Shown piece after piece: positions 3,590-58,935 of a stretch of 64,000 nucleotides of DNA. Made by a program: the position numbers and the translations under genes. This DNA is from Raja brachyura. Its lineage: Eukaryota. Where the stretch lies: assembly GCA_963514005.1 (NCBI GenBank), contig OY740783.1, positions 24,056,001 to 24,120,000 of the forward strand, in the 5' to 3' direction. Position 1 is the stretch's first letter. Every line of letters starts with the position of its first letter. The notes beneath the pieces are model-generated. The model had not been told where the DNA came from. It saw only the letters and a program-made list of their open reading frames with translations, and searched no databases.

Positions 3590-3725
3590 GTGCAGGAAGG
3601 AATTGCAGATGCTAGTTTAAATCGAAGATTGATACAAAAGGCTGGAGTAATTCAGCGGGACAGGCAGCATCTCTGGAGAGAAGGAATGGGTGATGTTTTG
3701 GGTCGAGACCCTTCTTCAGACAGGA
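3590..3725 (-). mobile_element. Penelope-derived 3' end fragment with degenerate hammerhead motif
   Basis: GCTGGAGTAATTCAGCGGGACAGGCAGCATC...GGGTCGAGACCCTTCTTCAGAC matches the 3' UTR of the Penelope copy at 31802. Confidence 0.75.
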
Positions 3726-4091
3726 ATAATCTTAATACCTGGAGTATACCTAACATAGTCTGGATGAGCCAAATAGTCTTCCTCTATGTTATAAGAAATT
3801 ATGAAGGACAGGAAGTGCCTACTTCCCTTAGCAGAGGAGACATGGGAACATTTTCTAGTAAAGTTCCACCATTTGGGAAGTTAGGCATTGCACTTCCTGA
3901 CATGATTCCCCAAATACTGAAGTCAAATGCCCACTGCATTCTGTGTACATAATGGCATCATCAACATGCATAACCCATATCTTTTGTTTAAAGCTGCAGA
4001 GATGTGATCAAATGGTTACAATTTGCGGTTCACATTATTGACACTCTGTTTGACATAGAGCACATCAAATTGAATATAGCTAGAAGTACAC

Positions 4092-7487: not shown

Positions 7488-7915
7488 TGACCAGCTGAGT
7501 TACTCTAGCATGTAGAATGTCTTCACTGGTGTAATGGATTTGATCCATTCGTAAAAAGTCCTGCCTGTCAATAAAGAATGTAACTGAAGTTATTTATTCC
7601 TTCCAACATGAAAAAGAAAAAAACAATCAATTCCTTACAAGATTCATGTAGTTATGCACAGCAATTGCAGTCAGTTGAGATGATATAACACCAAGTGAAA
7701 AAAAATATTGCGGAGGAAAAAGCAATTAGATATACAACTAAAGACTTTAATGTAATTATGCTTCTTTTTTTCAATTATAAGTAAGAATTGCATGACATGG
7801 GAAGGTATCCTGTTTCACTGCAAATTCAGCTATTTTTCATATTTTGTTGGTATTTTCAATAATCCCCATTCTCCCAAGATCACAAATTAGCCCCAAATTA
7901 TGACAAAAATAATTT

Positions 7916-8140
7916 AGACACAAAATGCTGGAGTAACTTGGTCAGGCAGCATCCGTGGAGAAAAGGAATAGGTTATGTTTTGGGTCGAGATCCTTCTTCA
8001 GTCTGAAGAAGGGGCTTGACCCAAAATGTCACCTATTTCTTTTCTTCAGACTGAAGAAGGATCTCGACCTAAAACATCACCTATTCCTTTTCTCCAGAGA
8101 TGCTGTCTGACCCACTGAGTTACTCCAGGATTTTGTGTCT
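7916..8140. repeat. Fold-back palindrome built from two Penelope 3' ends, with duplicated centre
   Basis: Arms AGACACAAAATGCTGGAGTAACT... and ...AGTTACTCCAGGATTTTGTGTCT are reverse complements. The centre CTTCAG(T/A)CTGAAG occurs twice. Confidence 0.85.
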
Positions 8141-8432
8141 ATCTTTGATCGGTAAACGGGCATTTTCCTTCCTGCACAAATATAACGTAGTCTGACACAT
8201 GGAGCAGTTAAAAAAAAATCATAGTTTAGTACAAAATCGTAACATTTGTTGTGTTATGTTCCTGCACCACCTTTTGTGCACCAACCAATCAAATATTGTT
8301 GTATGTTTTGTGAAGTCTGTGATGTTCAATTTCAGTTCTTTCTGTACTTGACAACCAGAACATTGAACGTTGATTAATTAAATTTCAATTGGACCTGCAG
8401 AGTTCCCATGGGCAAAGCCAGGTCACTCTGAG

Positions 8433-8982: not shown

Positions 8983-11800
8983 ATAACCATATAACCATAT
9001 AACAATTACAGCACGGAAACAGGCCATCTCGGCCCTTCAAGTCCGTGCCGAACAACTTTTTTTCCTTAGTCCCACCTGCCTGCACTCATACCATAACCCT
9101 CCATACCCTTCTCATCCATATGCCTATCCAATTTATTTTTAAATGATACCAACGAACCTGCCGCCACCACTTCCACTGGAAGCTCATTCCACACCGCTAC
9201 CACTCTCTGAGTAAAGAAGTTCCCCCTCATGTTACCCCTAAACCTCTGTCCCTTAATTCTAAAGTCATGTCCTCGTGTTTGAATCCTCACTATTCTCAAA
9301 GGGAAAAGCTTGTCCACATTAACTCTGTCTATCCCTCTCATCATTTTAAAGACCTCTATCAAGTCCCCCCTTAACCTTCTGCGCTCCAGAGAATAAAGAC
9401 CTAACTTATTTAACCTATCTCTGTAACTTAGCTGTTGAAACCCAGGCAACATTCTAGTAAATCTCCTCTGTACCCTCTCTATTTTGTTGACATCCTTCCT
9501 ATAATTGGGCGACCAAAATTGTACACCATACTCCAGATTTGGTCTCACCAAAGCCTTGTACAATTTTAACATTACATCCCAGCTTCTATACTCAATGCTC
9601 TGATTTATAAAGGCTAGCATACCAAAAGCTTTCTTTACCACCCTATCTATATGAGATTCCACCTTCAAGGAACTATGCACGGTTATTCCCAGATCCCTCT
9701 GTTCAACTGTATTCTTCAATTCCCTACCGTTTACCATGTACATCCTATTTTGATTTGTCCTGCCAAGGTGTAGCACCTCACATTTATCAGCATTAAATTC
9801 CATCTGCCATCTTTCAGCCCATTTTTCCAACTGGCCTAAATCACTCTGTATACTTTAGAAATCCTCTTCATTATCCACAACACCCCCTATCTTGGTATCA
9901 TCTGCATACTTACTAATCCAATTTACCACCCCTTCATCCAGATCATTGATGTACATGACAAACAACAAAGGACCCAACACAGATCCCTGAGGCACCCCAC
10001 TAGTCACCTGCCTCCAACCCGACAAACAGCCATCCACCATTACCCTCTGGCTTCTCCCATTCAGCCACTGTTGAATCCATCTTGCTATTCCTGCATTTAT
10101 ACCCAACAGTTGAACCTTCTTAACCAACCTTCCATGAGGAACCTTGTCAAAGGCCTTACTGAAGTCCATATAGACAACATCCACTGCTTTACCCTCATCA
10201 ATTTCCCTAGTAACCTCTTCAAAAAATTCAAGAAGATTAGTCAAACATGACCTTCCAGGCATAAATCCATGTTGACTGTTCCTAATTAGACCCTCATTAT
10301 CCAGATACTTATATATATTATCTCTAAGTATCTTTTCCATTAATTTGCCCACCACTGAAGTCAAACTAACCGGTCTATAATTGCTAGGTTTACTTTTAGA
10401 ACCCTTTTTAAACAATGGAACAACATGCGCAGTACGCCAATCCTCGGGGACTATTCCCGTTTCTAATGACATTTGAAATATTTCTGTCATAGCCCCGGCT
10501 ATTTCTACACTAACTTCCCTCAATGTCCTAGGGAATATCCTGTCAGGACCTGGAGACTTATCCACTTTTATATTTTTCAAAAGTGCCAGTACTTCTTTTA
10601 CTTTGAAACTCATAGTATCCATAACTACTCTACTAGTTTCCCTTACCTCACATAATTCAATATCCTTCTCCTTGGTGAATACCGAAGAAAAGAAATTGTT
10701 CAATATCTCCCCCATCTCTTTTGGCTCTGCAGATAGCTGTCCACTCGGTCTCTCCAATGGACCAATTTTATCCCTTGTTATCCTTTTGCTATTAATATAG
10801 CTGTAGAAACCCTTTGGATTTACTTTCACCTTACTTGCCAAAGCAACCTCATATCTTCTTTTAGCTTTTCTAATTTCTTTCTTAAGATTCTTTTTACATT
10901 CCTTATACTCCTCAAGCACCTCATTTACTTCATGCTGCTTATAATTATTGTAGATCTCCCTCTTTTTCCGAACAAGATGTCCAATTTCCCTTGAAAACCA
11001 GGGCTCTTTCCAATTTTTACTGGTTCCTTTCAACCGAACAGGAACATAAAGATTTTGTACTCTTAAAATTTCCCCTTTAAATGTCCTCCATTTCTCCTCT
11101 ACATCTTTCCCATAAAACAAAATGTCCCAGTTCACTCCTTTTAAATCATCTCGCATCTCGTTAAAGTTAGCCTTTCTCCAATCAAAAATCTCAACCCTAG
11201 GCCCAGTTCTGTCCTTCTCCATAATTATATTGAAACTAATGGTATTGTGATCACTGGACCCGAAGTGCTCCCCTACGCATACCTCCGCCACCTGTCCCGT
11301 CTCATTTCCTAACAGGAGGTCCATCACTGCCCCTCCTCTAGTAGGCACCTCTATGTATTGCTGCAAAAAACTATCCTGCACACATTTTACAAACTCCAAA
11401 CCATCCAGCCCATTTACAGAATGCGTTTCCCAGTCTATGTGTGGAAAGTTGAAATCTCCCACAATCACTACCTTGTGCCTACTACTAATATCTGCTATCT
11501 CTTTACATATTTGCTCTTCCAATTCTCGTTCCCCATTTGGCGGTCTATAATATACCCCTATAAGTGTTGCTACACCTTTCCCACTTCTAAGTTCCACCCA
11601 AATAGCCTCCCTAGATGAGCCCTCCAATCTATCCTGCGAAAGCACTGCTGTAATATCTTCCCTGACTAGCAATGCAACACCTCCACCTCTTGCCCCTCCA
11701 ATTCTATCACACCTGAAGCAACGAAATCCTGGAATATTTAGTTTCCAATCACAGCCCTCCTGCAACCATGTTTCACTGATCGCCACAACATCATACTTCC
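8983..11800 (-). mobile_element. Young CR1 LINE, 5'-truncated inside the endonuclease domain
   Basis: (GGTTATAT)n 8-bp tail at about 8983-9003 and a continuous ORF2 frame. Nested in the opposite-strand CR1 fragment. Confidence 0.95.
9066..11800 (-). pseudogene. CR1 ORF2: APE endonuclease + reverse transcriptase, single in-frame stop
   Basis: ORFs 9855-11861 and 9066-9830 are in the same frame and separated by one TAA (9855-9857). Motifs: [41 protein letters not shown]. Confidence 0.95.
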
Positions 11801-12353
11801 AAACAACATCATACTTCCTCAGATATAAGATATGGATCTTATAGAAACTTACAAAATTCAAATTAGGTCTATGAACATTATTTCAAAAGAGACTGTATCC
11901 AACCTGAGAGTGCAAAAGACAAGTTAAATTATTATGGATGTCTTCAACTAGAATTGTCAAATGGAGGGTTCTTTTCAGGCTCCTGTTTTCAGCCAGAGCT
12001 GTCAGCATTGCTAGAAATAACCTTTACACACCAGTACTTGCTCCCTCAGTAAGGCTCAGTTTGAGTTTGTTCGGGCTTCAAACCTCAAACTTTCCAAAAC
12101 TTTAATTATATTTTGCAGTGCAGAAGAAGCCCATTCAATCTACAGTGCGTCTGCCAGATCTTTGAAACGGCTATTCATTTAATCTAATTTTCTGATTATT
12201 CCTCACGGTGCCTCATTTTTCACTTTTCATAAAGTGTCTTTTCAAAGTTGCTCTTAGATATATAAAGTTATATAGCATGAAAAGAGATCCTGTGGTTCAA
12301 CGTGTCCATGCCGAACAAAATCTACACTATTTCTATTTTGCCTGTCAGACTCA

Positions 12354-18443: not shown

Positions 18444-18837
18444 GCAGCAGTAGAGATGCTGCATTACACCAAATGCAGCGCTGGAGACCCAGGTTCGATC
18501 CTGACTACGGGTGCTGTCTGTACAAAGTTTGTACGTTCTCCCCGTGACCTGCGTGGGTTTTCTCTGAGATCTTCGATTTCCTCCCACATTTCAAAGACGA
18601 GCAGGTATGTAGGTTAATTGTTCAAGAAGGAACTGCAGATGCTGGAAAATGAAGGTAGACAAAAATGCTGGAGAAACTCAGCGGGTGAAGCAGCATCTAT
18701 GGAGCGAAGTAGGTTAATTCGCTCCATGTAGGTTAATTGGTTTGGTAAATGTAAACATTTTCCCTAGTGGGTATAGGATAGTGTTAATGTGCGGGGTTGA
18801 AAGGGCTGTTTCCGCACTATATCTCTAAACAAAACTA
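18444..18837 (+). mobile_element. tRNA-derived SINE interrupted by a Penelope 3' fragment (18621-18708)
   Basis: SINE body with B-box at about 18492. The insert is flanked by the 14-bp duplication ATGTAGGTTAATTG. Confidence 0.8.
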
Positions 18838-19651
18838 ATTTGTGAGATATTGAAAAATATGAACCGATGCTTTTGCAAATATGGGTCCTGGTGCTTGTTT
18901 TATAATTTTGCATTCAGCAGAACAGAGCTGCAAGTTTGCAAGGCTTAGTGTGTGGCATCTACCAGATTTTAAGCTGTTGACCTTAAAGGGATTTCTCTAC
19001 CTTACAACCAAATGGCATATTTGATTTCTCTCTAAACTGTGAACCCAGGTCTGTAGGACCCAGGATCTCCCATTTCCCATTTGCTTCGTATTTTCATGTC
19101 TGATAGATTCTGACAGTATGGTAGCTGCCTCATGCTGATGTGGTTCAAACGGAAAGGCTAGATGCCTGATTGATTCCTGCTACTCTTCAGCATTGTGGAG
19201 CAATTATGATTCAGATCCAAGGCTTCTACCTTTTGCCTCAGAGAACATGCTCTTGAAAAGGGCCACAGCCAATTTGTAATTAAAACCTGAGTTACTTCAT
19301 TGATTCAGACTCCCTGTGACCCCTCTATTGACTGTTTGCTCTCATTCATTAATTTTACTCCCAAAATGTATCATCTCACATTTATCCACGTTAGATTGCA
19401 TCTATCACTTTTTTCCCTTTCCACTATTCGATCTACTTTGTTTCTCTGAGAGTTACACTTGCTAATATCTATTAAAGTACTTTTAGATTGTCGACATATT
19501 CACAGAATTCAAAATTACAACTTATGTCCATTGATTGGAACTCACTTGGAACTGTAAACAGACCCCTGGCATTTACTCGCTAAAAGTTATAGGAGGATTG
19601 AGACTGCACCATGAATATGGATATCTTGGAAGTCTGAACTTAGTGGCTAAG

Positions 19652-19746
19652 TGTCTGAAGAAGGGTCTCGACCCGAAACGTCGCCTATCTCCTTCACTCC
19701 TTAGATGCTGCTGCACCCGCTGAGTTTCTCCAGCTTTTTGTGTAAC
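19652..19746 (+). mobile_element. 95-bp Penelope-derived mini-element with hammerhead motif
   Basis: 13-bp TSD CTTAGTGGCTAAG at 19639-19651 and 19747-19759. The sequence equals the terminal part of the Penelope 3' UTR. Confidence 0.9.
19655..19682 (+). ncRNA. Minimal type I hammerhead ribozyme motif
   Basis: CUGAAGA-A-GGGUC(UC)GACCC-GAAA-CG-UC: intact core, hairpin stem II and palindromic ACGU helix III. Predicted cut after C19682. Confidence 0.7.
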
Positions 19747-20658
19747 CTTAGTGGCTAAGATGAGTCAACAATTTGTTGGAGTCAAGACTAAACTCCAGAT
19801 AGAGCTTGGTGCAATTCCACATCAATTACTGGTGAAAACTGCCCTGGAATCTGCACCAGGTCTAACCTGGCAAAGGAAGAGTAAACCTAAACTCATAGAG
19901 TGTCACTAGACTTAGTGGGACCCATTGGGTCCCAGCATCACACGGGAGGGCTGATCCCCAATGCAATATTCTGCATCTCCACCAATTCCAATATTGGTGG
20001 CCAGTGGGGGGGGGGGGGGGGGGGGGGGGGGGCTTTCTGGAGCACTAGTATGGGTGTTGAGGGGTTGAAGGGACTGGTTTCCAGAGGGCTAGTTTGGACA
20101 TTGTGGGCCGAATGGATTCTTAGGCTGGCGGCTCAGTCAATCAAGCCTGTTGTGCTGGCACCTCACTCACTCATGGCTGGTGGGCTGGCAGTTGACTCAC
20201 GGCTATTCCATTTCAAGCATGGTGTAAGGCCACTAAATTCAAGTGCTGTTTCTTACCACTTCAAGCAGGGTGCAAGGCCACCAAATTCAAGGTAGTTTCA
20301 TATCATTTCAAGCAGGGTGCAAGGCCACTAAAGACAGCAAGTCGTGACCTCTCCCTCCTCAATCTTGCAGAGACGGAGCCACACCCACACTTCTTAGTTT
20401 TATAGTCCCTCCCCCCTCCCAGCAGAAGGCCCGTGGCCTTCATGGAGTGATTGACAGGAGAGAGAATCTCAACATTTTTTAAACACTAATAACTCTTTTT
20501 ATTTTTCATCGATGGGAAAAATTCTCAGCACCTGATGAGCGGAGGGGGACTCTGAGTAAAATGGCAAAAAATCACAGCCGTACGTTGTAGCGTGTTTTCT
20601 AAAATCAATATAAAACGCAATTAGGTAGTGGTCAAGAATAGAATTTTAATTATACAGA

Positions 20659-20760: not shown

Positions 20761-21053
20761 TTTAGCATTTCCAAACCATAGGCAACATAGCTTTAGCATT
20801 TCCAAACCAAAGGCAACACAGCTTTAGCATTTCCAAACCAAAGGCAACACAGCTTTAGCATTTCCAAATCAAAGGCAACACAGCTTTAGGATTTCCAAAC
20901 CAAAGGCAACACAGCTGTAGCATTTCCAAACCAAAGGCAACACATCTTTAGCATTTCCAAACCAAAGGCAACACAGCTTTAGCATTTTCAAACCAAAGAC
21001 AACACAGCTTTTGCATTTCCAAACCAAAGGCAACACAGCTTTATCATTTCCAA
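20761..21053 (+). repeat. 31-bp minisatellite (~9.5 copies)
   Basis: Unit TTTAGCATTTCCAAACCAAAGGCAACACAGC, period 31. Confidence 0.95.
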
Positions 21054-21384
21054 GGGTTACACAAAAAGCTGGAGAAACTCAGCGGGTGCAGCAGCATCTA
21101 AGGAGCGGAGGAGATGGGCGATATTTCGGGTCGAGACCCTTCTTCAGACTGGTCAGGGATCAGGGAAACGAGAGAAATAGACAGTGATGTGGAGAGATAA
21201 AGAACAATGATTGAAAGATTTGCAAAAAAGTATTGATGATAAAGGAAACAGGCCATTGTAAGCTGTTTGTAGTGTGAAAATGAGAAGCTAGTGCAACTTG
21301 GGTGAGGGGGGGGGGAGATGGAGAAGGAATGTCAGGGGCTGAGGGAGAGGTGGGGAGGGGGAGGAGGCAGTCTGGGTTAACATA
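21054..21384 (-). mobile_element. Penelope 3' UTR fragment inserted in the Helitron minisatellite
   Basis: Same GGGTTACACAAAA terminus as 31802. Hammerhead-like core on the minus strand at about 21120-21147. 8-bp TSD ATTTCCAA at 21046-21053 and 21385-21392. Confidence 0.8.
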
Positions 21385-22176
21385 ATTTCCAAACTATATT
21401 TTCAAACCACATTAAGGGCACTGATATGTGAGTAAAACCACTCACAGTTTAGCAGACATGTGTTCAGTGTTATTCACAGCTCAGACTGAGAGACATGACC
21501 CTCTCGCTCCACCATCTTGCTGAAACTGACTGAGGCACTCAAAACTGTCGGGTTTTATAGTCTCTCCGGAAGGTGCATGGCCTTCAGGAGAGAGAATCTC
21601 AACATTTTTTAAACACTAATAATTCTTTTACTTTTAATTGATGGGAAAAATCCTCTTGTCCTTCGCAGCGGAGGGGGTCTGAGTAAGATGGCCAAAAATC
21701 ACACTTGTAAGTGGCAGCGTATTTTTTCTAAAATCAATGTGCAGAACAACACAAAGTGGTCAAGATCAGACTTTTAGTAATATAGATAAAGTGATGAAAA
21801 CAGGCCCTTCAGCCCAACTTGTCCATACCGGCCAACATGTTCCAGCTACACCTGCCTGCATTTGGTCCATATCCATCCAAACCCGTCCTATCCCTTAACT
21901 ATTTCTTAAACATTGGGATACTCCCAGCCTCAACTGCCTCCACAGTTCGCCAGGAAGAAGGATAAACATAAATTAATTTACAGTCTTTTGGCGTAATTTG
22001 AGCTTCCTTAAAATATTTAATTGTACAAAGGTGTTTTCACAATTAATTTACATTTTTTAGCTCTCATGAAATTCTTTCTTTTAATTACTCAATTAACTCT
22101 TGATAACATTTAAATATTTCTGTGTTCAAGATGTCAACGCTGACAACACATTAGGGTGTGGCTTTGATGACTGTCA

Positions 22177-29100: not shown

Positions 29101-29379
29101 CATCCCGAGTCCTATATTTCTCTTTTATTTCACCTCTTTTACTCCTCCTCACTGTCCCCTTCCACCTGTATTGCTACCTTCAACATTACCTTTCAGTTCT
29201 CCTCTTCTTTCCTTATATGATACCGTTTGTCTCGTTTCACTTCTATCCTTACTCCACGCAACACCGTCTGTCCATTCTCTCCATGAACACTGCCTCACCT
29301 GCTGAGTTCCTCCAGAAATGTGTTCTTTGTTCAAAAATACGTGCCTGTGTTTTTAAATAGAGGCCAATGTCATGCTTAT

Positions 29380-32597: not shown

Positions 32598-33677
32598 CCC
32601 TGGTGTCTGAGGAGTGATTACCTAGAGTCTGAGGAGTGATTACTGCTTAGTATCCAGGCATAGACTCACTTAAGATCACTTTATTCGCAACTGGCCACGG
32701 AGACTTGACTAATGCAGTATCAATGACGTTTCAGCGAGGCTCCTGATTCACGCTTGAGGATCATCTTACATCTTGGACTTATCTTCTGTCGCCCACTGTC
32801 CACTTTGACCCATAATAGAAACAAAGAATTGCTGAGGCTGGTTTATACACAAAGTGCTGGAGTAACTCAGCAGGTCAGGCTCTGGAGAGAAAATGGAACG
32901 ATTCGGGTCTGGACCCTTCTTCAGTCTGGGAGCCTTTCTCACCCATTATTTTTCTCCGGAGATGCTACGTCAACCGTTGAATTACTCCAGAACTTTGTGT
33001 CTCGCTTTAAACCATTGTCTGCCTCGATCCATTGTGTTTCTTTTGCAAGAGGGCGAAAGAGGGTCTCTTAATGTCAACAAAATCGCTTGTTTTGTTTTTA
33101 CTTACAGTTTATCCTCAAAATCATATTTTTTTCCCTTGTTTAGCCTATTTTTATCCATTCCTTTTTAAAGAAATTCTTCCTTTCTGCCTTCGTACATTGC
33201 CTTTTTTTAAGTTGACGATATTGGTTTTTAACCTGAAGTGTTTACCCTCAAATTCTAATTTGGAATTCCACCATACTGTGAGCCTATTCCTTAGAGGTCT
33301 GTAACTACAAGATCTTTTATTAATACTAACTCATTACTCATAAGCACATCTAAAATAGTCTGTGCCTTGTTATGTTCTGTTCTGTTTTGCTTAAGATATC
33401 TAATACCTTATGCACTTCACAAATTCCTCTGCGGTAGTAGATTTGGCAATTTGATTGGAGACACAAGAGACTGCAGATGCTGTGAACTTGAGCACAAGGT
33501 GCTAGAGGAACTCAACAGGCCAGGCACCATTTGTGGTGGGTCTGAAGATAAGTCCCAACGCAGAACTTTGTCTATCTTTTTCCCTTCACAGATGTTGCCT
33601 GGCCTGCTGAGTTCCTCCAGCACCTTGTATTTTTGCCTGTTTGATTTTTCATGTCAAGAGTGTTTTAGTGTCACTAA

Positions 33678-34010: not shown

Positions 34011-35704
34011 GCTTCCCACTTTCAGGACATGGGAGTTCTTACTTGCAGCAGCACATCAGGTTTGCAAAAATAACAGAACTCAATTAGTCATAGGGTCATA
34101 GAGTCATAGCAGTGTAGAAACAAGCCCTTGGGCCCAACTTGCCCACACTGGCCAACATGTCCCCTAAATAATTCAACAGTTCAATACATTTAAGAAATTT
34201 GTGCAAAGAAAAACCAGTTGGAAGTCCCTAGTGCATCATGGTGGTTCATGGTCCGGAGTTTATTTGGAGTTTGTAGCGTTCAATAGCCTGATGGCAGTTG
34301 GGAAGATGCTGTTCTTGAACTAAGATATTACAGTAGTCAGGCTATTGTATCTTCTTCTTGATTATTCCAATCAGTGTGCAGATTAAAATTACCCAGTCCT
34401 TTTCTTACATGCTTTTGTTCTTTCTTTACCTGTGTCATCTTACTCCCTGTATTCCTTACTTCCCTTGGAACCAATCTCACCTGAATCACTAGTCACCATC
34501 TCACTGATACCTTCCTTGAATAAAAATATTATTCCACATAATTTTCCTTATTGGCTATCCTTTTGGAGTAATGTTCCAAATCCTGGACATTCTGTAACCA
34601 TATCACTGTTACTGCCATAAAATTAAAGTCATTTATTTCTATTTTGCACTGTCATCTTTTTAAACATGCTGCATGTATTCAGATAGCGAGCTTTAAGCTT
34701 TGACTTTTCTTTTACAGTAGAATCCCATTCAGGTTAAATTTTCTGCTGCATGTTCTTGCTTTTAGTCCTGGCATGCTTTGATCTTTCATCCATTCCTTAA
34801 CTAAATACTCTCTCATTCGTTTTTCATCGAATGGACTTCCCATCACTTGAACCTCCTCACTCTACCACCACTGGGAGCAAAAACCTCTCCATAACCTGAG
34901 TTAAATGACACTCCTGAACACAGGTTCCAGCACAAATCAAAAGAAGCCTGTCCCAACGGCTCTCTTTCCCCAGAGATGGTGCCTCGCACATTGGGTTTTG
35001 CTCAAGATCTTAGGGTCGGCAGTTCCCTGTTTCTCTCTCGCACTTTCCCCAGTACTGATGCCAATGTATCATAATAGGGAACCCATTTCTCCTACACTAG
35101 TCTTTGAGCCCTTCATTTTAACCTGTAATCTTATTTACCCTTTGCAAAGTTGCCATATGGCTCAGTTAATAATCCAGATCTTATTAGCTTTGTGGATCTG
35201 TTTTTTTATTTTATTATGCGTTGCTCATCATCTCTCAGCAAAACCTCCTTCATACTCCTGTCTATATTGTTAGTGCCTCAAAGACCATAGCAACTGAATC
35301 CACTCCCTCCCATTCCATCTCCTGCCTTGAAGAAATATTCCAAACACCAACCTTTGGACTTAGAGTCATAGAGTCACGGTGATACAGTGTGGAAACAGGC
35401 CCTTCAGTCCAATTTGCCCACACTGGCCAACACCAGCTACACTAGTCCCATCTGCCTGTGCTTGGTCCATATCCCTCCAAACTTGTTCTATCTCTGTCTT
35501 TGCTGCAGAGTGCAACATTTTACGACCATATTATCATCAATGGCTACTGCATTTCTCTTTAATCCCCGACATGAAGGGCTCTCTGTACCAAAGTCAATTT
35601 GTTCATCCTCCCTGCTGTCCTCACTTTCAGCCAAACTGGGAGCAAGAACCTCAAACCCGATGGACAATTGTAAGGTATGGACAAAAAGGAAGCACTTTGT
35701 GTCA

Positions 35705-36070
35705 GAAGGAACTGCAGTTGCTGGTTTAATCCAAAGATAGACACAATATGCTGGAGTGACTCAGTGGGTGAAATAGCTTCTCTGGAGAGAAGGAAAAGGA
35801 ATATGTGACGTTTCGGTTCGAGACCCTTCTTCAGACTGAGAGTCGGGGAAAAGGAAACGAGAGATATAGATGGTGATATAGAACCAATGAATGAAAGATA
35901 TTCAAAAAGTAACGATGATCAAGAGTCACGAATGGTTCATTGTTGGCTGCCCAAGCAAAATAGTTGCTGTCCCACCAATTTGCGTTTGGCCTCACTCTGA
36001 CAGTGGAGAAGGCCCAGGACAGATAGCTCAGTGTGGGAATGGCAATTGGAGTTAAGGTGTTTGGCAACCT
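35705..36070 (-). mobile_element. Penelope 3' fragment (endonuclease tail remnant + UTR with hammerhead core)
   Basis: Minus strand CTGAAGAAGGGTCTCGAACCGAAACGTC at about 35808-35835. 35975-36060 resembles 32072-32160. Confidence 0.75.
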
Positions 36071-36368
36071 TTGCAGTCACACCTTCCTGTCTATGAACAG
36101 TGATCAAACTCAAGGCAACTGCCCTCCAATCCCGGAAATCGCATGGTGTATAAAACTCATACTCCAGCTCATTGACCCTGAGCTGGTCTGTCGAGCAAAA
36201 TCACATGATGCAGATCGAATCAAGATGAGACATAATAAGGTCCATCAGTTTCCACATGCAGCAGCTACAACAGATCACGTGATTAACCATTTCTATTTAT
36301 TTAGTCAATTATTTTGGATTTAATTTCTTTAAATGTGCAATCTTTAATTGATTTTATTGTATTACATA

Positions 36369-39300: not shown

Positions 39301-41171
39301 TCGTTCATTCGTTCATGTGTCAGACAACATTCTGCCATCGCTTTGCCACAGCCAGTGCCACATCTGTGCCTCTGCAGAGATCATCCGGAGTGCATGCCTC
39401 TCCACTGCGTCAGTAAATGGGCCATAGTCTGTACCTATCCACAGTTGCACTTGTCAGAGTTCGAGAGGCCCCACTTCTTCAGTGTCACCAACGTCCAACT
39501 CCAGTGCGGAGGCGGTTTAGGGCTTTCCAGGTAGCATAAGGCAGGTGGTGTCCTGGTGCCATCTGTTGTTTGGGTTTGGTGCCTGGTACGGTTGGCTCTA
39601 GTTCCATGAAGCTTTTCCGACTCTTCAGCCGTTTCTTGGCATGTTGGTGATTGTGCAAGGGGTAGCGGGGTCTGTGTCCGCATTGAAGCGTTCTGCAGCA
39701 GCTGCCCGATCACGTCTTCGATATGTTTCGTCGATGCCTGCCAGCTCATACAGATGTTCAACCTTTGTCGGGTTCAGGCATCCTATGGTTTTCCTGCAGG
39801 CAGTGTTCAATGCAGAGTCCATGTGCGCATGTTCAGAGCGGCTACAGACAGGGCTTGCATATTCTGCCACTGAGAAACAGAGCGCCAGGGCTGCAGTGCG
39901 GATTAATGTTGGGTCATTTCCAAATGAGCTGTTTGCCAATTTGTCGATGACATTGTTCCGGGTGTTGAACTTTGCTTTGGTTTCCTCAACATGTTGTCGA
40001 TATGATAACGTGCGATCGAGGAACACACCTAGGTACTTTGGGGCTTTGCAGTGTTCCAAGTGGACATCATTCTATCGCACTTGTTGTTGACGTTTCGCAT
40101 CCCGGTTCCGGAGGTGGAAAGCTGTGCTTTGCGTTTTTGTTGGGTTTGGGCGCAGGGAGTTCTGTTGGTAGTATGTTGTCATATTCTGCAGAGCAGCCTC
40201 TAGTACGGTCTCAATTTGTCTGAAGTCTGAGGATTGCGTTGCGATGCATAAGTCATCAGCATACAGAAACAACCTAGTTTTCAGGGTGATGGGTTGGTCA
40301 TTGGTGTATATAATGAACAACATTGGGGCAAGGACACTGCCCTGCGGTAGACCATGCTTTTGACATCTCCAACGGCTGTTCCGACCATTCAGGCATATGA
40401 AGAAGCAAGCGGCGGTTCCCCATCATTGTCATGATGAACTGGACAAGATGAGAGTCCTGTAGTGTTTGTTGCAGTTTGGATTTCATGGTATGGTGGTTTA
40501 CAGTGTCATATGCTGCGGACAAGTCTACAAATACTGTACCTGTGATCAGCTTCCCCTCAAAGCCATCTTCAATGTGCTATGTGAGGTTCAGCAGTTGTCC
40601 TGTTGTTGCGGAATCCAGCCTGTTCAGGTATCAAAACATCGTCTACATCCAGTGTTATGCGGTTCAGTGTGCATCTTTCCATCAGTTTGTATGGGTGGCA
40701 CAGCAGGGATATAGGCCGGTAGCTGCTGGGAAGATTGGCATCTTTGCCTGGTTTTGGTAAAGCAACAACCCTGGATTTCCGCCAGACTCGTGGAATGTTA
40801 AACATCTCCAGCAACCATTCTCATGCTCTGGGACCCAGATGTTGCAGCATTTCAGTTCTGATGTTGTCTAAGCCAGCTGCCTTGTTAGGTTTCATCACAT
40901 TCAGGGCTTTGTTGAGTTCGTCCATGGTGAAAGATTGTATGTACCATCCGTCGTTTCGATTGTTGTCATCAAGAACCTTTGGGGGCGGAGGTTTCTTACC
41001 ACTTCTCTTGCCGTTTAGCAACAACTGGTGTGCAACCTGGTTAGCAGTCACATTTCCACGTGGTTTACTGTGGGTGGGGTCATTACCGACACGTCTCAGT
41101 GTCGCCCAAGCCTTCCTGCTGCTGTGTCGTAGGTCTGTGGTTTCTATTAGCTCCTGCCATTGTCTGCGTTT
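39301..41171 (-). mobile_element. Vingi/Ingi-like (I-group) non-LTR retrotransposon, 5'-truncated, frameshifted RT
   Basis: Fragments LPKPGKD..YRPISLL, LSAAYDTVNH, YTNDQP..YADD, KYLGVFLDRTLSY, IRTAALALCFSVAEY and C-terminal KWG..CNCG..QTMAH. No RNase H. (ATGAACGA)n tail. 7-bp TSD TAGGTGC at 39294-39300 and 41172-41178. Confidence 0.8.
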
Positions 41172-41673
41172 TAGGTGCAGGTGCAGGAGTAGGCCATTAG
41201 GTGCAGGGGTAGGCTATTTGGCCCTTTGAGCCAGCACTGATATTCACTGTGGTCATGGCTGATCATCCATGCTTTTTTATAGCCATCTTTCTGTAATGGC
41301 TATAAAGTAGTCAGTTGCATGTACCTATCCATTTCACTAACCATGCCCTGAGTTCATCCATCTTACCTGTCAGGCTTCTTACAGTGAAATAAATGCAATT
41401 TAATTGAACATTCTTTCCTCGCTCCCTGCCTACCCAGTTTCTATTCACTTTCTTCATTTCACACTGTGCTGATCCATTCCTCAGACATTACCTTGGGTAA
41501 CCCATCAACAGCACCTCAGGAAAGCCATTTGGAAGCTCAAAGAATAGAGTCTCACTTCATGAAGTAAATTAACAGAGCATGGCATGTTATTTAGTTCTTC
41601 TATGTTTGATTGATTTTCACAGAAAACCCGCAACCGCCTTCCTGGTGTTTAGTTCAGTTTGGAGATACGGCAC

Positions 41674-44600
41674 AGAAACATAGAAACATAGAAACATAGA
41701 AAATAGGTGCAGAGTAGGCCATTCAGCCCTTTGAGCCAGCACTGCCATTCAATATGATCATGGCTGATCATCCAACTCGGTATCCTGTACTTGCCTTCTC
41801 TCCATACCCCCTGATCACTTTAGCCACAAGGGCCACATCTAACTACCTCTTAAATATAGCTAATGAACTGGCCTCATCTAGCTTCTGTGGCAGAGAATTC
41901 CAGAGACTCACCACTCTGTGTGAAAAATGTTTTCCTCATCTCGGTCCTAAAGGAATTCCCCTTATCCTTAGACTGTGACCTCTTGTTCTGGACCTCCCCA
42001 ACATCGGGAACAATCTTCCTGCATCTAGCCTATCCAACCCCTTAAGAATTTAGTACGTTTCTATAAGATCCCCCCTCAGTCTTCTAAATTCTAGCGAGTA
42101 CAAGCCAAGCCTATCCAGTCTTTCCTCATATGAAAGTCCTGAAATCCGAGGAATCAGTCTGGTGAACCTTCTCTGTACCCCCTCTATGGCAAGAATGTCT
42201 TTCCTCAGATTTGGTGACTAAAACTGTACGCAATACTCCAGGTGTGGTCTCACCAAAACCCTGTACAACTGCAGTAGAACCTCCCATACTCAAATCCTTT
42301 TGCTATGAATGCTAACATACCATTTGCTTTCTTCACTGCCTGCTGCACCTGCATGCCTACTTTCAATGATTGGTGTACCATGACACCCAGGTCTCGTTGC
42401 ATCTCCCCTTTTTCAAATTTGCCACCATTAAGATAATTGTCTACCCTCCCGTTTTTGCCACCAAAATGGATAACCTCACATTTATCCACATTGTACTGCA
42501 TCTGCCATGCATTTGCTCACTCACCCAGCCTATCCAAGTCACCTTGCAGCCGCCTAGCATCCTCCTCACATCTAACACTACTCCCCAGCTTAGTGTCATC
42601 CGCAAACTTGGAGATGTTGCATTCAATTCCCTCGTCCAAATCATTAATATATATTGTAAATAGCTGGGGTCCCAGCACTGAGCCTTGCGGTACCCCACTA
42701 GTCACTGCCTGCCATTCTGAAAATAACCCATTTACTCCTACCCTTTGCTTCCTGTCTGCCACCAAGTTCTCTATCCACATCAATACTGAACCCCCAATAC
42801 CGTGTGCTTTAAGTTTGTATACTAATCTTATATGTGGGACCTTGTCGAAAGCCTTCTGAAAATCTAGATGTAACACATCCACTGGTTCTCCCTTATCCAT
42901 TCTACTAGTTACATCCTCGAAAAAGTCTATAAGATTCGTCAGACATGATTTACCTTCCATAAATCCATGCTGACTTTGTCCAATGATTTCACCACTTTCC
43001 AAATGTGCTGCTATCCCATCTTTAATAACTGACTCTAGCAGTTTCCCCACTATCGATGTTAGACTAACTGGTCTGTAATTCCCCTCCTTTTTTAAAAAGT
43101 GGGGTTACATTAGCTACCCTCCAATCCTCAGGAACTACTCCAGAATCTAAGGAATTTTTGAAAAATGATCACTAATGCACCACTATTTCTGTGGCTACTT
43201 CCTTGAGTACTCTGGGATGCAGACTATCTGGCCCTGGGGATTTATCGGCCTTTAAACCATTCAATTTACCCAACACCACTTCCCGGCTAACCTGGATTTC
43301 ACACAGTTCCTCCACCTTATTTGACCCCCGGTCCGCTGCTATTTCCGGCAGATTATTTATGTCTTCCTTAGTGAAGACAGAACCAAAGTAGTTATTCAAT
43401 TGGTCTGCCATGTCCTTGTTCCCCATGATCAATTCACTGACTGCAAGGGACCTACATTTGTTTTAATTAATCTCTTTCTCTTCACATATCTATAAAAACT
43501 TTTGCAGTCAGTTTTTATGTTCCGTGCCAGTTTTCTTTCATAATCTATTTTCCCTTTCCTAATTAAGCCCTTTGTCCTCCTCTGCTGGACTCTGAATTTC
43601 TCCCAGTCCTCTGGTAGGCTGCTTTTTCTGGCTAATTTGTATGCTTCATCTTTTGTTTTTATACTATCCCTGATTTCCCTTGTATTCATGGATGCACTAC
43701 CTTCCCTGATTTATTCTTTTGCCAAACTGCAATTCTTTCCATTGCACATCCACTGTCAACCCTTTAAGAATCACTTACCAGTCTATCTTGGCCAATTCAC
43801 GTCTCATACCTTGAAAGTTACCTTTGCTTAAGTTCAGAACCCTTGTTTATGACATAATTACATCACTCTCCATCCTAATGAAGAACTCAACCATATTATG
43901 GTCACTCTTGCCCAATGGGCCACGCACAACAAGATTGCTAACTAACCCTTCCTCATTACTCAATACCCAGTCTAGAATAGCCTGCTCTCTCGTTGGTTCC
44001 TCTACATGTTGGTTTAGAAAACTATCCCACATACATTCCAAGAAATCCTCTTCCTCAGCACCCCTGCCCATTTGATTCACCCAATCTATATGTTGATTGA
44101 AGTCACCCATTATAACTGTTTTACCCTTGTTGCACGCATTTTTAATTTCCTGTTTGATGCCATCTCCAACTCCACTACTACTGTTAGGTAGCCTGTACAC
44201 AACTGCCACTAGCATTTTCTGCTCCTTAGAGTTTCGCAGCTCTACCCATATCGATTCCACATCCTCCAAGCTAATGTCCTTCCTTTCTATTGCATTAATC
44301 TCCTCTCTCACCAGCAATGCTACCCCACCTCCTTTTCCTCTCTGTCTATCCCACCTGAATATTGGATGTCCCTGGATGTTCAGCTCCCAGCCTTGGTCCC
44401 CCTGGAGCCATGTCTCCGTGATCCCAACTATAGCATAGTCATTAATAGCTATCTGCACATTCAACTCGTCCACCTTATTACGAATGCTCCTCGCATTGAG
44501 ACACAAAGCCTTCAGGTTTGTTTTTACAACACTCTTACCTTATACAATTATGTTGACAAGTGGCCCCTTTTGATTTTTGCTCTGAAAACCCACCACCTCT

Positions 44601-44881: not shown

Positions 44882-46072
44882 TTGACTGCGGAGGACCGCG
44901 GGAATGCGGGCAGTCAGCAGCGGCCGACTTCTCCAGAGCTGCTCGTTGTACAAACGGCAGCCCCCGACTTGACGCCGCAACAGCCCACAGGAGCACCTTG
45001 GACTGGCGACAAAGCCACCCGGAAGTTGGGCAAGCCCATTGACTGGGCAAGATCCGGGCTCGAAGACTCGCTGCCCGCAGGTAGCGACGGCGGTCGATTA
45101 TCCCGCATGGAGCGGATGGTGGAGCAATTGCTCCAATGTGAGCTACTCCAGCAGGAGTCTGGTCACCGTGGGTCTCCTAGCAGGCCCACGGCAGTACCCT
45201 TTACAGGGCTGCCAAATGTCTCACCCTCTTCGTAGGGGAGCATAAGGAGTCAGGTCTGGGCTGACTCTGAAGAGGGGGATTTGGCAGAAGAAACCAATGA
45301 GCTAGGGTTGCAAGAAGAGGAGCTACTCGGGATGGTGTCCAAGTTTGCGATGCCCTCACAGAAGGACTGCCGTTGCAGCCACAGCTGGTAGCCAGTATAA
45401 ATTACCTAACAACTCATCAGCTACAAGAACAAGCTATGAACGACACAACAGCCAAATATCTAGCTCCAGAAAACTGCATCTCCCTCAACGTGTCTGCGGT
45501 AAATAACCCCATCTGTGGAAATATCAGTCCTGGCATTAGGAGCCAGGAAGTTAAAATGCAGAAAATCCTGAAACTATTGGCCTCTGGTATTACAGTTTTT
45601 GCCAGGTCAGTAGACCGGAAAGATATGTCAGAGGAGCAACAGGATGCTCCTGTACAAATTTGAGATCAACCGTTTCAGGAAGAGTGTCATCCGACCTACA
45701 CTAAACCCAAAGTTCGTGGGGTTGTGTAGAACCAGCAGCGCACAGCCGCCTACTCTGTTGTTTGGGGACAACCTGCCCAAACAGGTAAAAGACCTCGACG
45801 AAGAGGCAAAAGCCGTCCTCATGATTAAGGTGCCGGCCGCTACCAGGTCCTCATATTTTCGGCGGCAGCACGCCTATGCATCCACCAGCAGGCTGCGTTA
45901 TCACAGCAAAAGAACAGCTGGTGAAAGCTCGAAGGCCGTACAGCGTACACAAAGGTCTTTTTCAGGCCATGTCCCAGAACGGCCTTCCTGGAAGATGCGC
46001 CAACCCCACACCACAGCGCCTCCACCTCCCAGGAACCAAGGACGGATAAAACCAACACAGCACCACCGGTAA
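44882..46072 (+). pseudogene. DIRS ORF1 (gag-like), disrupted
   Basis: Fragments PENCISLNVSAVNNPI and RKSVIRPTLNPKFVGLC...LLFGDNLPKQVKDL lie directly upstream of RT. Confidence 0.7.
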
Positions 46073-46074
46073 CC

Positions 46075-47578
46075 ATGGAGGTAGGTGGGTCTGGTTGCCC
46101 TCGGAACATAGCATGTGTAACTTCTTCACAAGTTGGGGGAAGATTACACTTATTTAGAGATGCATGGAGTTCTATAACTTCTGATCCTTTTATACTGCAC
46201 AGTATTCAGGGATACAAAATTGAATTTGTTGACAAACTCCTCCTTCCGGTTCAACATGCACCAAGCCGAAAGTTTGTGCTTTCACAAAAAGAGAAAGTGG
46301 AAGGTCATGCGGAACTGTTAAGACTAAATACAAAAGGAGTAATTGAGAAAACCAAACACGAATCTCTTGAGTTTGTATCAAACATCTTCACCAAAAACAA
46401 AAAAGATGGCGGATGCCACATCATTATTGATTTGACACAACTGAATACTTTTGTGCAATACACCCACTTCAAAATGGAAACTTTTGTTACTGCCAAACAA
46501 CTAGTTTCCAAGGGGTACTTCATGGCTTGCATCGATCTGAAAGATGCACACTATTCAGTACCTATTCATGAAGATCACCGCAGATATTTGAAATATATCT
46601 GGATGGGACAGCTATGGCAGTATAAAGAGCTGCCTAATGAACAAACAACAGCCCCCAGACTATTTACTAAAATATTGAAACCAGCATTGGCTTTTCTTCG
46701 GAAACACATTGTCATGGCATATCCCAATGACATCCTAATTGTGGGGAAAACCTTGGAATTGGCTAAATTGGCTGTCACAGCCACCAAGATCCTATTTCAA
46801 AAATTGGGACATCATCCATCCAGCCAAATCCAAGTTCATGCCTTCTGTGACAATGGAATAACTGGGGTTCACGATCGACTCTGCTCATATGACTGTCACC
46901 TTGCCAAAAAGTGACAGACTTGATAGAGGCATGTAACAGCCTTGTTTGTGTCAGTAAACCATCAATTCGGCAGGCTGCCAGGGTAATCGGGAAACTTGTG
47001 GCTGTTTTTCCAGCCACACAATATGGACCTTTACATTACCAACATTTACAAAAATTGCAGCACTCAAACTTCACGCTGGCCATTTTGACAGGCCAATGCA
47101 GCTACCGGCCAAAGCAAAAATACAATTGCGATGGTGGATTAGCAATGTTCGACATTGCTCTAATCCCATCACAGTCACAAACCCTTCGGTTGTGTTACAA
47201 ACTGACGCCAGTGCTCACGGCTGGGGAGCAACTGATACCACCTCCAGTTGTGGTGGTAGATGGAATAAACACGAGTTAACCTTACTTCAGACACTGGGTA
47301 TCAATCATCTAGAGATGTTGGGAGCGTTTCACAGACTTCGGGCTTACTGTTCAGACATGCACCATCTGCATGTTCGCCTACAAATTGATAACACCACTGT
47401 GGTGGCATACATTAATCATATGGGTGGATTTAAGTCGATATCTTGTGATGAATTGGCCAATTCAATCTGGCACTGGTGCATAGAAAGAAACATTTGGATA
47501 TCAGCTACTTACCTTCCGGGTAAGCTCAATACATTGGCGGACACCAGGTCACACATATTAAATGACAACACCAAATGA
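46075..47578 (+). pseudogene. DIRS RT + RNase H, frameshifted
   Basis: VGGRLHLF..W, KKDGG..IIDL..LN, HFKMET, IDLKDAHY and APRLFTK. Catalytic YLDD is decayed to YPND. RNase H motifs TDASAHGWGA, INHLE, IDNTT..YINHMGG and YLPGKLN..AD. Confidence 0.9.
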
Positions 47579-47579
47579 A

Positions 47580-48040
47580 TGTTGGACCACCAGGTATTTA
47601 TTGACATTGTAACTCGGTATGGAACGCCAGATATCGACCTTTTTGCATCCAGACTTAATCACCAGATACCAACATCTGAAGAAAGGTCTCGACCCGAAAC
47701 GTCGCCTATCTCCTTCGCTCCTTAGATGCTGCTGCACCCGCTGAGTTTCTCCAGCTTTTTGTGTAACCAACATATGTTGCATGGGAACCAGACCCTGGGG
47801 TAGTAACGATGGATGTTTTCTCGCTACACTGGGGGGATTTGTTTTTCTATGCATTTCCCCCCTTCTGCCTTATCAGTTGGGTCTTGCGGAAAATTCAACA
47901 AGACTCAGCATCAGGTATTTTGGTAGTACCCAATTGACCTACTCAGCCATGGTTCCCTGTGGTCTCAGAACCATGTATTCCAAAATCCAAACGCCCCACT
48001 TTGCTGGTACATCCTGTGACAGGGGAGAGTCATCCGTGCC
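47580..48040 (+). pseudogene. DIRS DNA N6-adenine methyltransferase-like domain, interrupted
   Basis: After removing 47676-47773 it reads PDIDLFASRLNHQIPTYVAWEPDPG..DVFSLHW, then (frameshift) AFPPFCLISWVLRKIQQD and QPWF. Confidence 0.75.
47676..47765 (+). mobile_element. 90-bp Penelope-derived hammerhead mini-element inserted in DIRS
   Basis: Begins exactly at CTGAAGA. 8-bp TSD ACCAACAT at 47668-47675 and 47766-47773. Excision restores the host reading frame. Confidence 0.9.
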
Positions 48041-48062
48041 ATGACCGAATGAACCTATTGGT

Positions 48063-49012
48063 TTGCAGGATTTGAAAAGACCTCTCCTGGAATTTGGGCT
48101 GTCGGACCGAACCATGAATATCATCACGGCATCATGCAGAGAGTCCACCAGGAAACAGTACCTTACCTATATCAAAAAATGGGAGGTATTTTGTACCAGG
48201 ACAAACACTACTTCCTGGCAAGTCTACATTTCGATGAAGGCTTGAGTTATAGTGCCATCAACTGCGCAAGAAGTGCCCTGTCCTCATACCTGGAACAGTG
48301 GTTAGAACACCATGGAGTAGGATCTCACTCTCTGGTGTCAAAACTTATGAGGGGTATTTTTAACTCAAATCCCCCCAGGCCTCGATGTTCCCAGACCTGG
48401 GATATTGGCATTGTCCTGACCTTGCTCAGAGATTGGGCACCAGCCACGTCCCTTTCACTAACCAAACTCACGTATAAAATGGTGATGCTGATGGCGCTTG
48501 TAACGGCACAGCGGGTCCAGTCTCTGCACAAACTAAGACTGGACGCCATGGCAACATCCCAAAATAAGGTAACCGGTCACATTTATGAGTTACTTAAACA
48601 GAACAGGCCTGGATCATCTGGCCTCAAATTGGAGTTCTTGGCTTATCCCGTAGATAGACGCCTATGCATAGTGACCCACCTTCTACATTACCTGGAGGTC
48701 ACCAAAAGTCTCAGGGGAACGGAAATGGCTCTATTGATAAACTTTAAACATCCTCATCATAGAGTAACTGTGCAGACCATCTCAAGATGGCTTAGGGTGG
48801 TATTAGATGCAGCAGGGGTGGACACTGATGTTTTTAAATCTCATTCTACCAGGGCTGCAGCTACATCGGCAGCAATGATTATGGAAGTTGCTATGGACCA
48901 CATCCTTGCAACGGCGGGTTGGTCTAATGAAACAACTTTCCAGCAGTTTTATAACATACCTGTGGCCACGCCTGAGATATTTGCAGACACTATTTTAAGT
49001 TCTGTATTATAA
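48063..49012 (+). pseudogene. DIRS tyrosine recombinase (one N-terminal frameshift; catalytic domain open)
   Basis: GLSYSAINCARSALS, TAQRVQ (R), HSTRAA (HxxR), AGWS (W) and TFQQFY (Y). Confidence 0.9.
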
Positions 49013-49836: not shown

Positions 49837-50420
49837 ACAAAACTGCACATCTTTGGAACATGGGAGGAAACCGAAGATCTTGGAGAAAACCCATGCGGGT
49901 TGCACCAGCTTGAGTCATCTCACTACAGTTCCACACAAACTGTGGGCAGCAAAGTGAGGCAGCGGGAGAGTTGCTGCCTTACAGTTCCAGAGACCCGGGT
50001 TCAACGACAGGTGCTGTTGATGCTGATTAGAACTGAAATCAAAGGATTTTCAAATAAAAGAAGTTAACAATACTAGCAGGTACGATGCAATATAATTAAA
50101 TGCAATATAATTCCGCTTCATTTTGCGTGCGCAGGAACCTTTATGAATCAATTCTGCTTTGACTTCTTCATTGTGTTCTGACTTTTGAACTGAATTGAAT
50201 TTCCACTTCAGCAACTGGGTATTACTCATGCAGTTTTTTATGGACTCTTTTAGGAAAGCAAAACACTATTTTTCAATGGTGATTCTGGCTTATATTTTGA
50301 CCGTTAATCAGCTCCTCCCATGTGTAATGAAAACAAAGGGAAACAGTATAAATTTCTTACCAAAGACACCTACCGATGCATAAAGAGGATTCTCCTCACA
50401 CTCATTACAGTTCCACATGA

Positions 50421-50560
50421 AGAAGTCTGAAGAAGGGTTTCGGCCCGAAACGTTGCCTATCACAGTCTGAAGAAGGGTTTTGGCCCGAAACGTTGCCCAT
50501 CTCCTTCGCTCCTTAGATGCTGCTGCACCCGCTGAGTTTCTCCAGCCTTTTGTGTACCCG
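50421..50560 (+). mobile_element. 140-bp Penelope-derived mini-element with two tandem hammerhead motifs
   Basis: 13-bp TSD CAGTTCCACATGA at 50408-50420 and 50561-50573. A 40-nt repeat gives cores at 50427-50454 and 50467-50494. Confidence 0.9.
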
Positions 50561-50594
50561 CAGTTCCACATGATTTATGTGGAATGATGGACAA

Positions 50595-58137: not shown

Positions 58138-58736
58138 CTACTTCTACCTGAGCAGAGACTTCAGACAGTGTTGTACATTATTTTGCTTCACATTGTAAGT
58201 GGTATGGGACCACCAGCAGACAATTCTTTAAGCAATTAATTACTTGGATAATATATGTAGAACAAGCAACGGGATAAGCAATAGGTTCTGCTTTATTGAT
58301 GTCCATTGTCGATTTTGTCCATGTACCAAAAATACCCAAACCTCACTCAATATGGTAGATACAAGGTAGTGCAAAGCTTCCCATGCCAGCTTACAAAACA
58401 AGACACAAAGTACTGGAGTAACTCAACAGGTCAAGCAGCATCACTGGAATAACATGAATAGTTGATGTTTTAGGTCGAGATCCTTCTTAAGTCCAATGGT
58501 GACCATACCTTCACATTATTGCATTGAATTATATCCAAAGCACATGTGATAGATGAGAAAGAACAATTACTAAAACAGAGAGCGAGTGGAAACAAGTTCT
58601 GCTGTTCGTAAGAACAAATGTACATACATCAGTCTTTTGAATATAATAACACGGGCTCATTCATAAGTATATATACGTTCAGAACTACATTTATTTTTTA
58701 AGTTGGTCATGCATATCCAGGAACTCTATATATAAA

Positions 58737-58935
58737 ATACAAAAAGCTGGAGTAACTCAGTAGGTCAGGCAGCATCTCTGGAGAAAAGGACTAGGTGACG
58801 TTTCGGGTCAAGACCCTTCTTCAGACATTAAACATCATCTATTCCCTTTCTCCAGAGACGCTGCCTGGCCCACTGAGTTAATTCAGCTTTTAGTGTCTTC
58901 TTCGGTTTAACCCAGCATCTCCAGTTTCTTCAAAC
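58737..58935. mobile_element. Penelope-derived palindromic element
   Basis: Inverted arms; minus-strand core CTGAAGAAGGGTCTTGACCCGAAACGTC intact at about 58797-58824. Confidence 0.8.

Follow-up and report, generated by a model that had tools for sequence, protein, structure and literature searches.

Three short insertions in a 64,000-nucleotide stretch of Raja brachyura DNA (contig OY740783.1, positions 24,056,001 to 24,120,000; this whole stretch is the window, and all coordinates refer to it) each begin at or just before a hammerhead ribozyme core, which raises the question of what kind of element they represent and what sets their shared start. Copy A is 95 bp long (19652-19746), begins 2-3 nt before the core and lies between 13-bp target-site duplications (TSDs) at 19639-19651 and 19747-19759. 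Copy B, of 90 bp (47676-47765), carries 8-bp duplications (47668-47675 and 47766-47773), and copy C, of 140 bp (50421-50560), carries 13-bp duplications (50408-50420 and 50561-50573); all three insertions and their TSDs are on the plus strand. Counted to the CUGAAGA motif, the starts lie 3 nt (A), 0 nt (B) and 6 nt (C) upstream. A preliminary description of the window had reported these insertions, their coordinates, their TSDs of 13, 8 and 13 bp and their starts 0-6 nt before CUGAAGA, all of which we reproduce. Its list is accurate for the three copies but represents only three of the five young copies with a whole module (A, B, C, D and E), since D and E were omitted.

Shuffling of the flanks equalled the observed TSD match in 1 of 5000 trials for copy A, 68 of 5000 for copy B and 0 of 5000 for copy C, and a chance origin of the duplications is rejected for A and C on these counts. 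Random pairs of complex 30-nt windows gave a 13-bp match in 64 of 12654 cases and an 8-bp match in 300 of 12654, and the same control without filtering gave 118 and 748 of 19800, respectively. On these counts the 8-bp TSD of copy B is weak on its own; the insertion is confirmed independently of TSD statistics by the DIRS-like reading frame that it interrupts. Copy B lies between the reverse transcriptase (RT) frame (45925-46914) and the tyrosine recombinase frame (48053-49012) of this coding region, and its flanks join in a single frame with a Pro-Thr pair duplicated. Its host is the remnant of a DIRS-like retrotransposon (45925-49012, plus strand) with RT, an RNase H-like region and a tyrosine recombinase. 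Copy C has two hammerhead cores 40 nt apart, with C3 at 50427 and 50467 and both ending in GUU, and is built as a 40-nt head-to-tail duplication of the core plus a 94-nt unit. Abutting the left TSD of copy A is an 8-base match to the element's own start (19631-19638, plus strand), which may reflect annealing of a cDNA end or chance. Elsewhere, the window holds long LINE-type frames with endonuclease and RT domains (9066-11882, minus strand), with similar fragments near 42517-44539, and degraded RT-like frames on the minus strand at 39602-41229, one piece of which has no Pfam match.

The reading of the motif as a minimal type I hammerhead (CUGAAGA, an extra A, GAAA, a palindromic ACGU and UH) holds with corrections. 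In copy A the predicted core occupies 19655-19682 (plus strand), with C3 at 19655, an extra A after A9, a 4-bp stem II and the palindromic ACGU. Type I hammerheads cut 3' of H17; the GUC of copy A ends at 19682, and the predicted cut falls after C19682. Whereas the core motif given in the preliminary description stands, its five-pair stem II does not: a fifth pair would give a 2-nt loop, which is rejected by the energy model, so that stem II has four pairs closing a 4-nt loop. The order CUGANGA, stem II, GAAA, palindrome and UH, together with the extra base after A9 and the G10.1-C11.1 pair, is present in copy A and in both cores of copy C; in copy B, A replaces G at 10.1 and breaks this conserved pair. 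In an alignment of 16 copies, 86% of stem II is paired and all changes in it are one-sided, and no covariation rises above that of shuffles, the percentage paired being reached in 257 of 500. Stem I is at most 2 bp long (two pairs, 69% of cells paired in the same alignment), and the helix I of 4-5 bp expected for minimal type I hammerheads of Penelope-like elements (PLEs) is absent. A search of Rfam at E up to 1 returned no hammerhead but only hairpin-driven miRNA-type matches below their cut-offs. RNA folds of the whole module are no better than those of shuffles (z -0.07 to 0.18), and the predicted folds do not adopt the hammerhead.

Motif scans for the hammerhead module gave 0 matches in viral contigs, metagenomes and prokaryote genomes, and looser patterns gave three loci of another family and three phage loci, none of them usable. 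The other repeat family (L001:339, L002:601 and L003:38) has a similar core with an 8-nt palindrome in helix III and a 4-bp stem I in two of the three loci, all three of which extend upstream of the core. Hammerhead-like cores upstream of start codons in viral contigs (L004:1001-1025, L005:1001-1025 and L006:1001-1025) are unrelated to the window.

The identity of the insertions is indicated by longer copies that close with the same module. Copy D is a 331-bp insertion (21054-21384, minus strand) consisting of the module and 237 nt of upstream element sequence, flanked by an 8-bp TSD (21046-21053 and 21385-21392); its core lies at 21147 on the minus strand, 85 of 90 bases are identical to copy A, and its 3' end falls at the same base. 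All four public runs that were aligned contain the empty site of copy D, as a joint from 21045 to 21385 that skips 339 bases. Copy E (31804 to about 32601, minus strand) is a 5'-truncated PLE of about 800 bp in which an RT-thumb/linker region, a CX4CXXC motif, a GIY-YIG domain with one in-frame stop and a 100-nt UTR precede the module and the same 3' end. Its core, at 31895 on the minus strand, belongs to a module 83/90 identical to that of A, and the copy continues about 700 nt further upstream, being truncated before the RT core; a TSD was looked for in copy E and none was found. Copy F (35691-36071, minus strand) is older and retains the C-terminus of GIY-YIG, the UTR, the module and a tail. 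The module and tail of copy F form an open frame of 48 codons (35691-35834, minus strand) with no protein match, and the end of this tail is complementary to the inner 3' end.

Pieces of copy E match a shark protein (P0004) at 63% identity over 105 amino acids and, for the other piece, at 66%. P0004 carries GIY-YIG above and RVT_1 below the Pfam cut-off, while the GIY-YIG piece of copy E alone reaches E=0.022, under the cut-off. Skates supply the three best of 16 protein homologues, which by themselves make a skate or near relative the likely host. Scans with P0004 for full-length loci yielded none. The CX4CXXC of copy E fits the CX2-5CXXC zinc linker preceding the endonuclease, which is named as a feature of Neptune-type PLEs (PMC8557442). 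Since longer copies that encode GIY-YIG terminate in the same module and the same 3' end, copies A, B and C almost certainly represent the hammerhead-bearing terminal module of a Neptune-type Penelope-like element and not a separate retrozyme; the linker motif and the homologues point to the Neptune clade as the probable assignment. The link to a Penelope-like element drawn in the preliminary description is thereby borne out, the module being colinear with the 3' end of the longer copies that encode the endonuclease.

A profile search of the window recovered 38 module fragments, which with some flank amount to 3173 bp or about 5% of the window. Copy G (58736-58939, minus strand) has a module starting at -2, after an inverted arm, and a 13-bp TSD (58940-58952 and 58723-58735), and copy H (3590-3732, minus strand) has 11 extra bases ahead of a module that starts at -2, together with a tail and a 13-bp TSD. 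At locus I (7907-8150) opposed modules meet in palindromic junctions centred on the upstream edge of the core. Copy L (18620-18725, minus strand), a young copy flanked by a 13-bp TSD and bearing a 36-nt 3' tail, begins at +33 to +38, which is downstream of the predicted cut, and is a counter-example to the shared start. Tails occur on F and H as well as L, inverted arms on G, I, P and S, and TSDs measure 8-13 bp, so that a fixed 3' end, an optional tail of 30-40 bp, inverted 5' arms and variable TSDs are all present. The inverted arm of copy P (32939-33009, plus strand) starts within 2 nt of the predicted cleavage position, and the other arms start elsewhere.

The pair of 3' ends 36 nt apart, the inverted arms and the variable TSDs fit the described structure of PLEs (PMC8557442, PMC11167929). 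The truncated copies and solo pLTRs of Neptune-clade EN+ PLEs (PMC8557442, PMC8969392, PMC3846280) share with the copies described here the GIY-YIG domain with its zinc linker and the terminal-repeat hammerhead, and also the fixed 3' end, the optional 30-40 bp tail, the inverted 5' arms, the partial tandems and the variable TSDs. These papers describe 5' truncation as frequent, and a sharp 5' pile-up at the hammerhead edge is not reported in their passages on it. Nor did we find such a pile-up in the open-access texts and passages that we consulted.

The hammerhead likewise resembles the minimal type I motifs of metazoan PLEs (Cervera and De la Pena 2014, PMC4209133) in its CUGANGA core, the extra base between 9 and 10.1, G10.1-C11.1 and the palindromic 15.2-16.2. 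The motifs in that paper are mostly single and come from truncated PLEs, an origin that was thus already known. By comparison, helix II is 4 bp here and helix I at most 2 bp, as short as the 2-bp helix I given there for D. virilis; two supplementary files of that paper contain no shark or skate entry. Metazoan non-LTR retrozymes (PMC7229834; bioRxiv 10.64898/2026.07.22.740005) share the type I hammerhead, a PLE origin or dependence and dispersed monomers, are present in one chondrichthyan genome according to the same two sources, and have a PLE origin in animals that was already known (bioRxiv 10.64898/2026.07.22.740005). They differ in having tandem repeats, a hammerhead per unit and circular RNA, whereas the short copies that begin at the core (hereafter stubs) are single, shorter than most retrozymes and colinear with the end of a PLE. 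Retrozymes are recognized by at least two full tandem units, but A and B are single and C repeats only 40 nt; they are also recognized by a unit bounded by the cleavage site, but the 5' ends observed here lie 28-34 nt upstream of the predicted cut. The discrete, non-coding, retrozyme-like unit proposed in the preliminary description is therefore set aside, given the colinearity with longer endonuclease-coding copies, the ends about 30 nt from the cut, the lack of full-unit tandems in the window and a stem I of at most 2 bp.

Having established what the stubs are, we turn to where they begin. Only copies in which a TSD or an inverted arm defines the 5' edge were counted, which prevents divergence of the UTR from mimicking clustering; offsets were read by eye. 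Nine of the 15 independently bounded copies (A, B, C, G, H, I, P, R and S) start at -4 to 0 from C3, the offsets of I and P being ambiguous within that range as each has a palindromic junction, and the other six start at +2, +8, +14, +16, +33 and about -237. Excluded from the count were six copies without a TSD that continue, or seem to continue, upstream (E, F, T, Q at 55547, X at 29260 and one at 2377), nine old fragments with no independent edge (59280, 58491, 30573, 52271, 51707, 1529, 1605, 1365 and 7488) and the inverted arms themselves. For a uniform 60-nt range the clustering has p = 6e-7, or about 7e-6 corrected for 12 windows. The clustering of 5' ends is real, yet copies that run upstream are also common.

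The native upstream edge of the core, read in copy D at 21144-21152 (minus strand), is an initiator-like YYANWYY (A at 21150) whose bases can also be read as a pyrimidine tract with a YAG acceptor-like site. YYANWYY is the initiator consensus, and a pyrimidine tract followed by YAG is the splice acceptor consensus. With its A at -3, YYANWYY is present in D, E and F and absent in T and in the inner unit of C, against a background of 0.013 per base. A TATA-like motif about 30 nt upstream occurs in F and in the contig majority for D, and not in E.

Four of 23 listed public runs (X1, X3, X15 and X17) were aligned to copy D, contributing 43385, 46765 (with 74% of X3 covered), 5028 and 4040 contigs, respectively; X15 and X17 were guessed to be RNA and treated as DNA-like evidence. 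The results concern the best 24 of 1052 rows for loose ends and the best 12 of 276 rows for joints. Among the rows listed, a sharp 3' loose end lies at 21058 in 193 (X1), 157 (X3) and 38 (X15) contigs. Loose 5' ends, among the rows listed, lie at 21151 in 64 (X3), 30 (X15) and 14 (X17) contigs, at 21150 in 24 (X15) and at 21149 in 10 (X17), while none of the six rows listed for X1 falls at 21149-21151. The non-random 5' ends suspected in the preliminary description are therefore seen both in nine of 15 bounded copies in the window and, as loose-end rows at 21149-21151, in three of the four runs. The consensus of the largest of these rows, at 21151, is rich in G, and subfamilies with another UTR are probably their source or part of it; on the cDNA strand the loose end at 21149 in X17 starts with A (agreement 0.41) and that at 21150 in X15 with T (0.36). 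The summed contig depth of the first UTR bin relative to the core bin is 0.45 (X1), 0.51 (X3), 0.62 (X15) and 0.59 (X17), which is not a copy number but a sign that copies running upstream are common.

Nine of the best 12 of 276 joint rows leave 21149, 21150 or 21151 for 21080-21117, and all nine of these, among the rows listed, start with a non-native C on the cDNA strand, equivalent to a G before the edge. The listed joints all come from X3, their strand and kind are not shown, and the side to which the extra C is assigned is our interpretation. The inner junction of copy C lies 7 nt past the predicted cut, which corresponds to 21111-21117 on copy D, the target of most listed joints. If the listed joints are direct repeats, two-core hammerhead dimers with cores 38-40 nt apart form recurrently.

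From the observed colinearity with GIY-YIG copies, the module with its fixed 3' end, the TSDs and the clustering at -4 to 0, we judge the chances to be about even that the shared start before the core marks the capped 5' end of an RNA, and that RT starts inside this RNA and runs off at the cap. The GIY-YIG domain would nick the target, and RT would initiate either at TGTGTA or where the tail ends, as in vitro work on an anole PLE has shown. Where the module stands at the front of the transcript, RT would begin about 90-130 nt from the RNA 5' end and the cDNA would stop at the start site; such a cDNA could be integrated as a stub, fold back to give an inverted arm or jump to give a repeated core. 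A module at the back of a read-through transcript would instead give long copies such as D and E, and the hammerhead would be a passenger here, with its cut falling about 30 nt downstream of the edge. We favour this reading because of the initiator-like edge, the extra G at three positions and the repeated restarts in copy C and locus I. In L1, an untemplated G has been interpreted as the mark of a cap (PMC6425141), and promoters and start sites of PLEs have been located in the pLTR (PMC2377424, PMC8557442). In the anole Poseidon element PAc (Frangieh et al. 2024, PMC11167929), reverse transcription is initiated within the RNA, at two positions downstream of the hammerhead that are separated by one tail length, product length is set by the template 5' end and cleavage is dispensable. 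The copies described here share with PAc the two 3' ends a tail apart downstream of the hammerhead, and PAc provides the in vitro counterpart for a product length that depends on the template 5' end. It differs in belonging to the Poseidon clade and in an ORF that begins in stem II, and its genomic 5' ends and start site are not mapped in the main text. Against a capped end, copies A, G and H have a T immediately before the -2 edge, where a G stands only in S, and B and C have no single extra G. The A and T that begin the loose ends in X17 and X15, and the lack of ends at 21149-21151 among the six rows listed for X1, also speak against it.

Splicing accounts for the edge in another way, since a splice acceptor can be read in its bases: the pLTR would contain an intron that ends at the YAG before the core, and the stubs would be exon 2 with a few bases of a short exon 1. 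A pyrimidine tract and CAG precede the core in D, E, F and T, and TG in A, G and H and AAG in C, before the acceptor position, are possible exon ends. A parallel is the D. virilis Penelope intron, which ends at the 5' end of helix I (PMC4209133); there the start site lies 46 nt before this 75-nt intron (PMC4209133, PMC2377424), an arrangement that speaks against a capped end and favours splicing in that element. In the window, however, A, B, C, G and H share no constant exon-1 sequence longer than 2 nt, the extra letter moves with the edge at three positions as a fixed exon would not, and PLEs are known to retain introns on transposition (PMC8557442, PMC2377424), which makes splicing a distinctly improbable source of the stubs. 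It is also unlikely that the cDNA stalls or is released at the near-palindrome on the edge of the core, the stubs then being 5'-truncated copies of long templates that mark no RNA end; the same grade applies to its variants, in which snap-back, a bound protein or microhomology joining acts at a truncation hot spot. The palindromic junctions of locus I and copy P are centred on the edge, the 3' end of the D cDNA pairs back into the element in a predicted DNA fold, and inverted arms with palindromic junctions have been ascribed to self-priming (PMC3846280). But none of A, B, C and H carries an inverted arm, the predicted fold-back is missing in E and takes another form in F, the whole-module RNA folds no better than shuffles, and the extra C in nine of nine such joints, among the rows listed, is left unexplained. 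The long copies D, E and F pass through the edge, which is therefore not an absolute stop. Stalling at a hairpin, which the preliminary description had held against its own proposal, is rejected for stem II, since the 5' ends lie beyond that stem, which had already been copied.

It is very doubtful that the stubs form a separate non-autonomous, retrozyme- or SINE-like family with its own master copies, mobilized in trans by the PLE protein. Copies A and B match at 88 of 90 bases and are closer to each other than to D; non-autonomous derivatives of pLTRs have been described (PMC8557442); and with an internal promoter such as that of D. virilis Penelope (PMC2377424) a stub beginning at the start site could be transcribed. 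Yet the stubs belong to several subfamilies that differ in age and match long copies from those subfamilies, the window contains no tandem arrays of full units, the unit ends away from the cut site and the core of copy B is damaged. That hammerhead self-cleavage defines the 5' end of the mobilized RNA is least compatible with the geometry, and we regard it as extremely improbable, even though the motif has the features of minimal PLE hammerheads and the anole hammerhead cleaves with protein help (PMC11167929). The predicted cut after 19682 is 28-34 nt downstream of the observed ends, and cleavage as their source is rejected on this ground; none of the 15 bounded copies starts at +28, the start of L being at +33 to +38. 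Moreover, the stubs contain the core that a 3' cleavage product would lack, so cleavage does not set their 5' end, and the anole element inserts without cleavage, with no RNA-seq reads starting or ending at the site (PMC11167929).

The stubs thus represent a known kind of element, and the regularity of the 5' edge is the part that is undocumented and testable: many genomic copies display a sharp edge at the ribozyme, from which the location of the template 5' end can be tested, and this edge argues against cleavage setting the ends of these copies. The finding bears on how PLEs build their pseudo-LTRs and inverted arms and on the role of the hammerhead. Extending the capped-end reading, we tentatively suggest, as a possibility short of a probable one, that PLEs make a strong-stop-like cDNA, in which RT primed on target DNA would start about 90-130 nt inside a capped RNA and run off its cap at the hammerhead edge, the product then integrating, folding back or jumping template. 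If this is true, one step would explain stubs, inverted arms and partial tandems. If, in addition, the promoter is internal, as in D. virilis Penelope, the 95-bp stub would combine a start site, a ribozyme and the point at which RT begins, and could propagate itself as a minimal Pol II retroposon.
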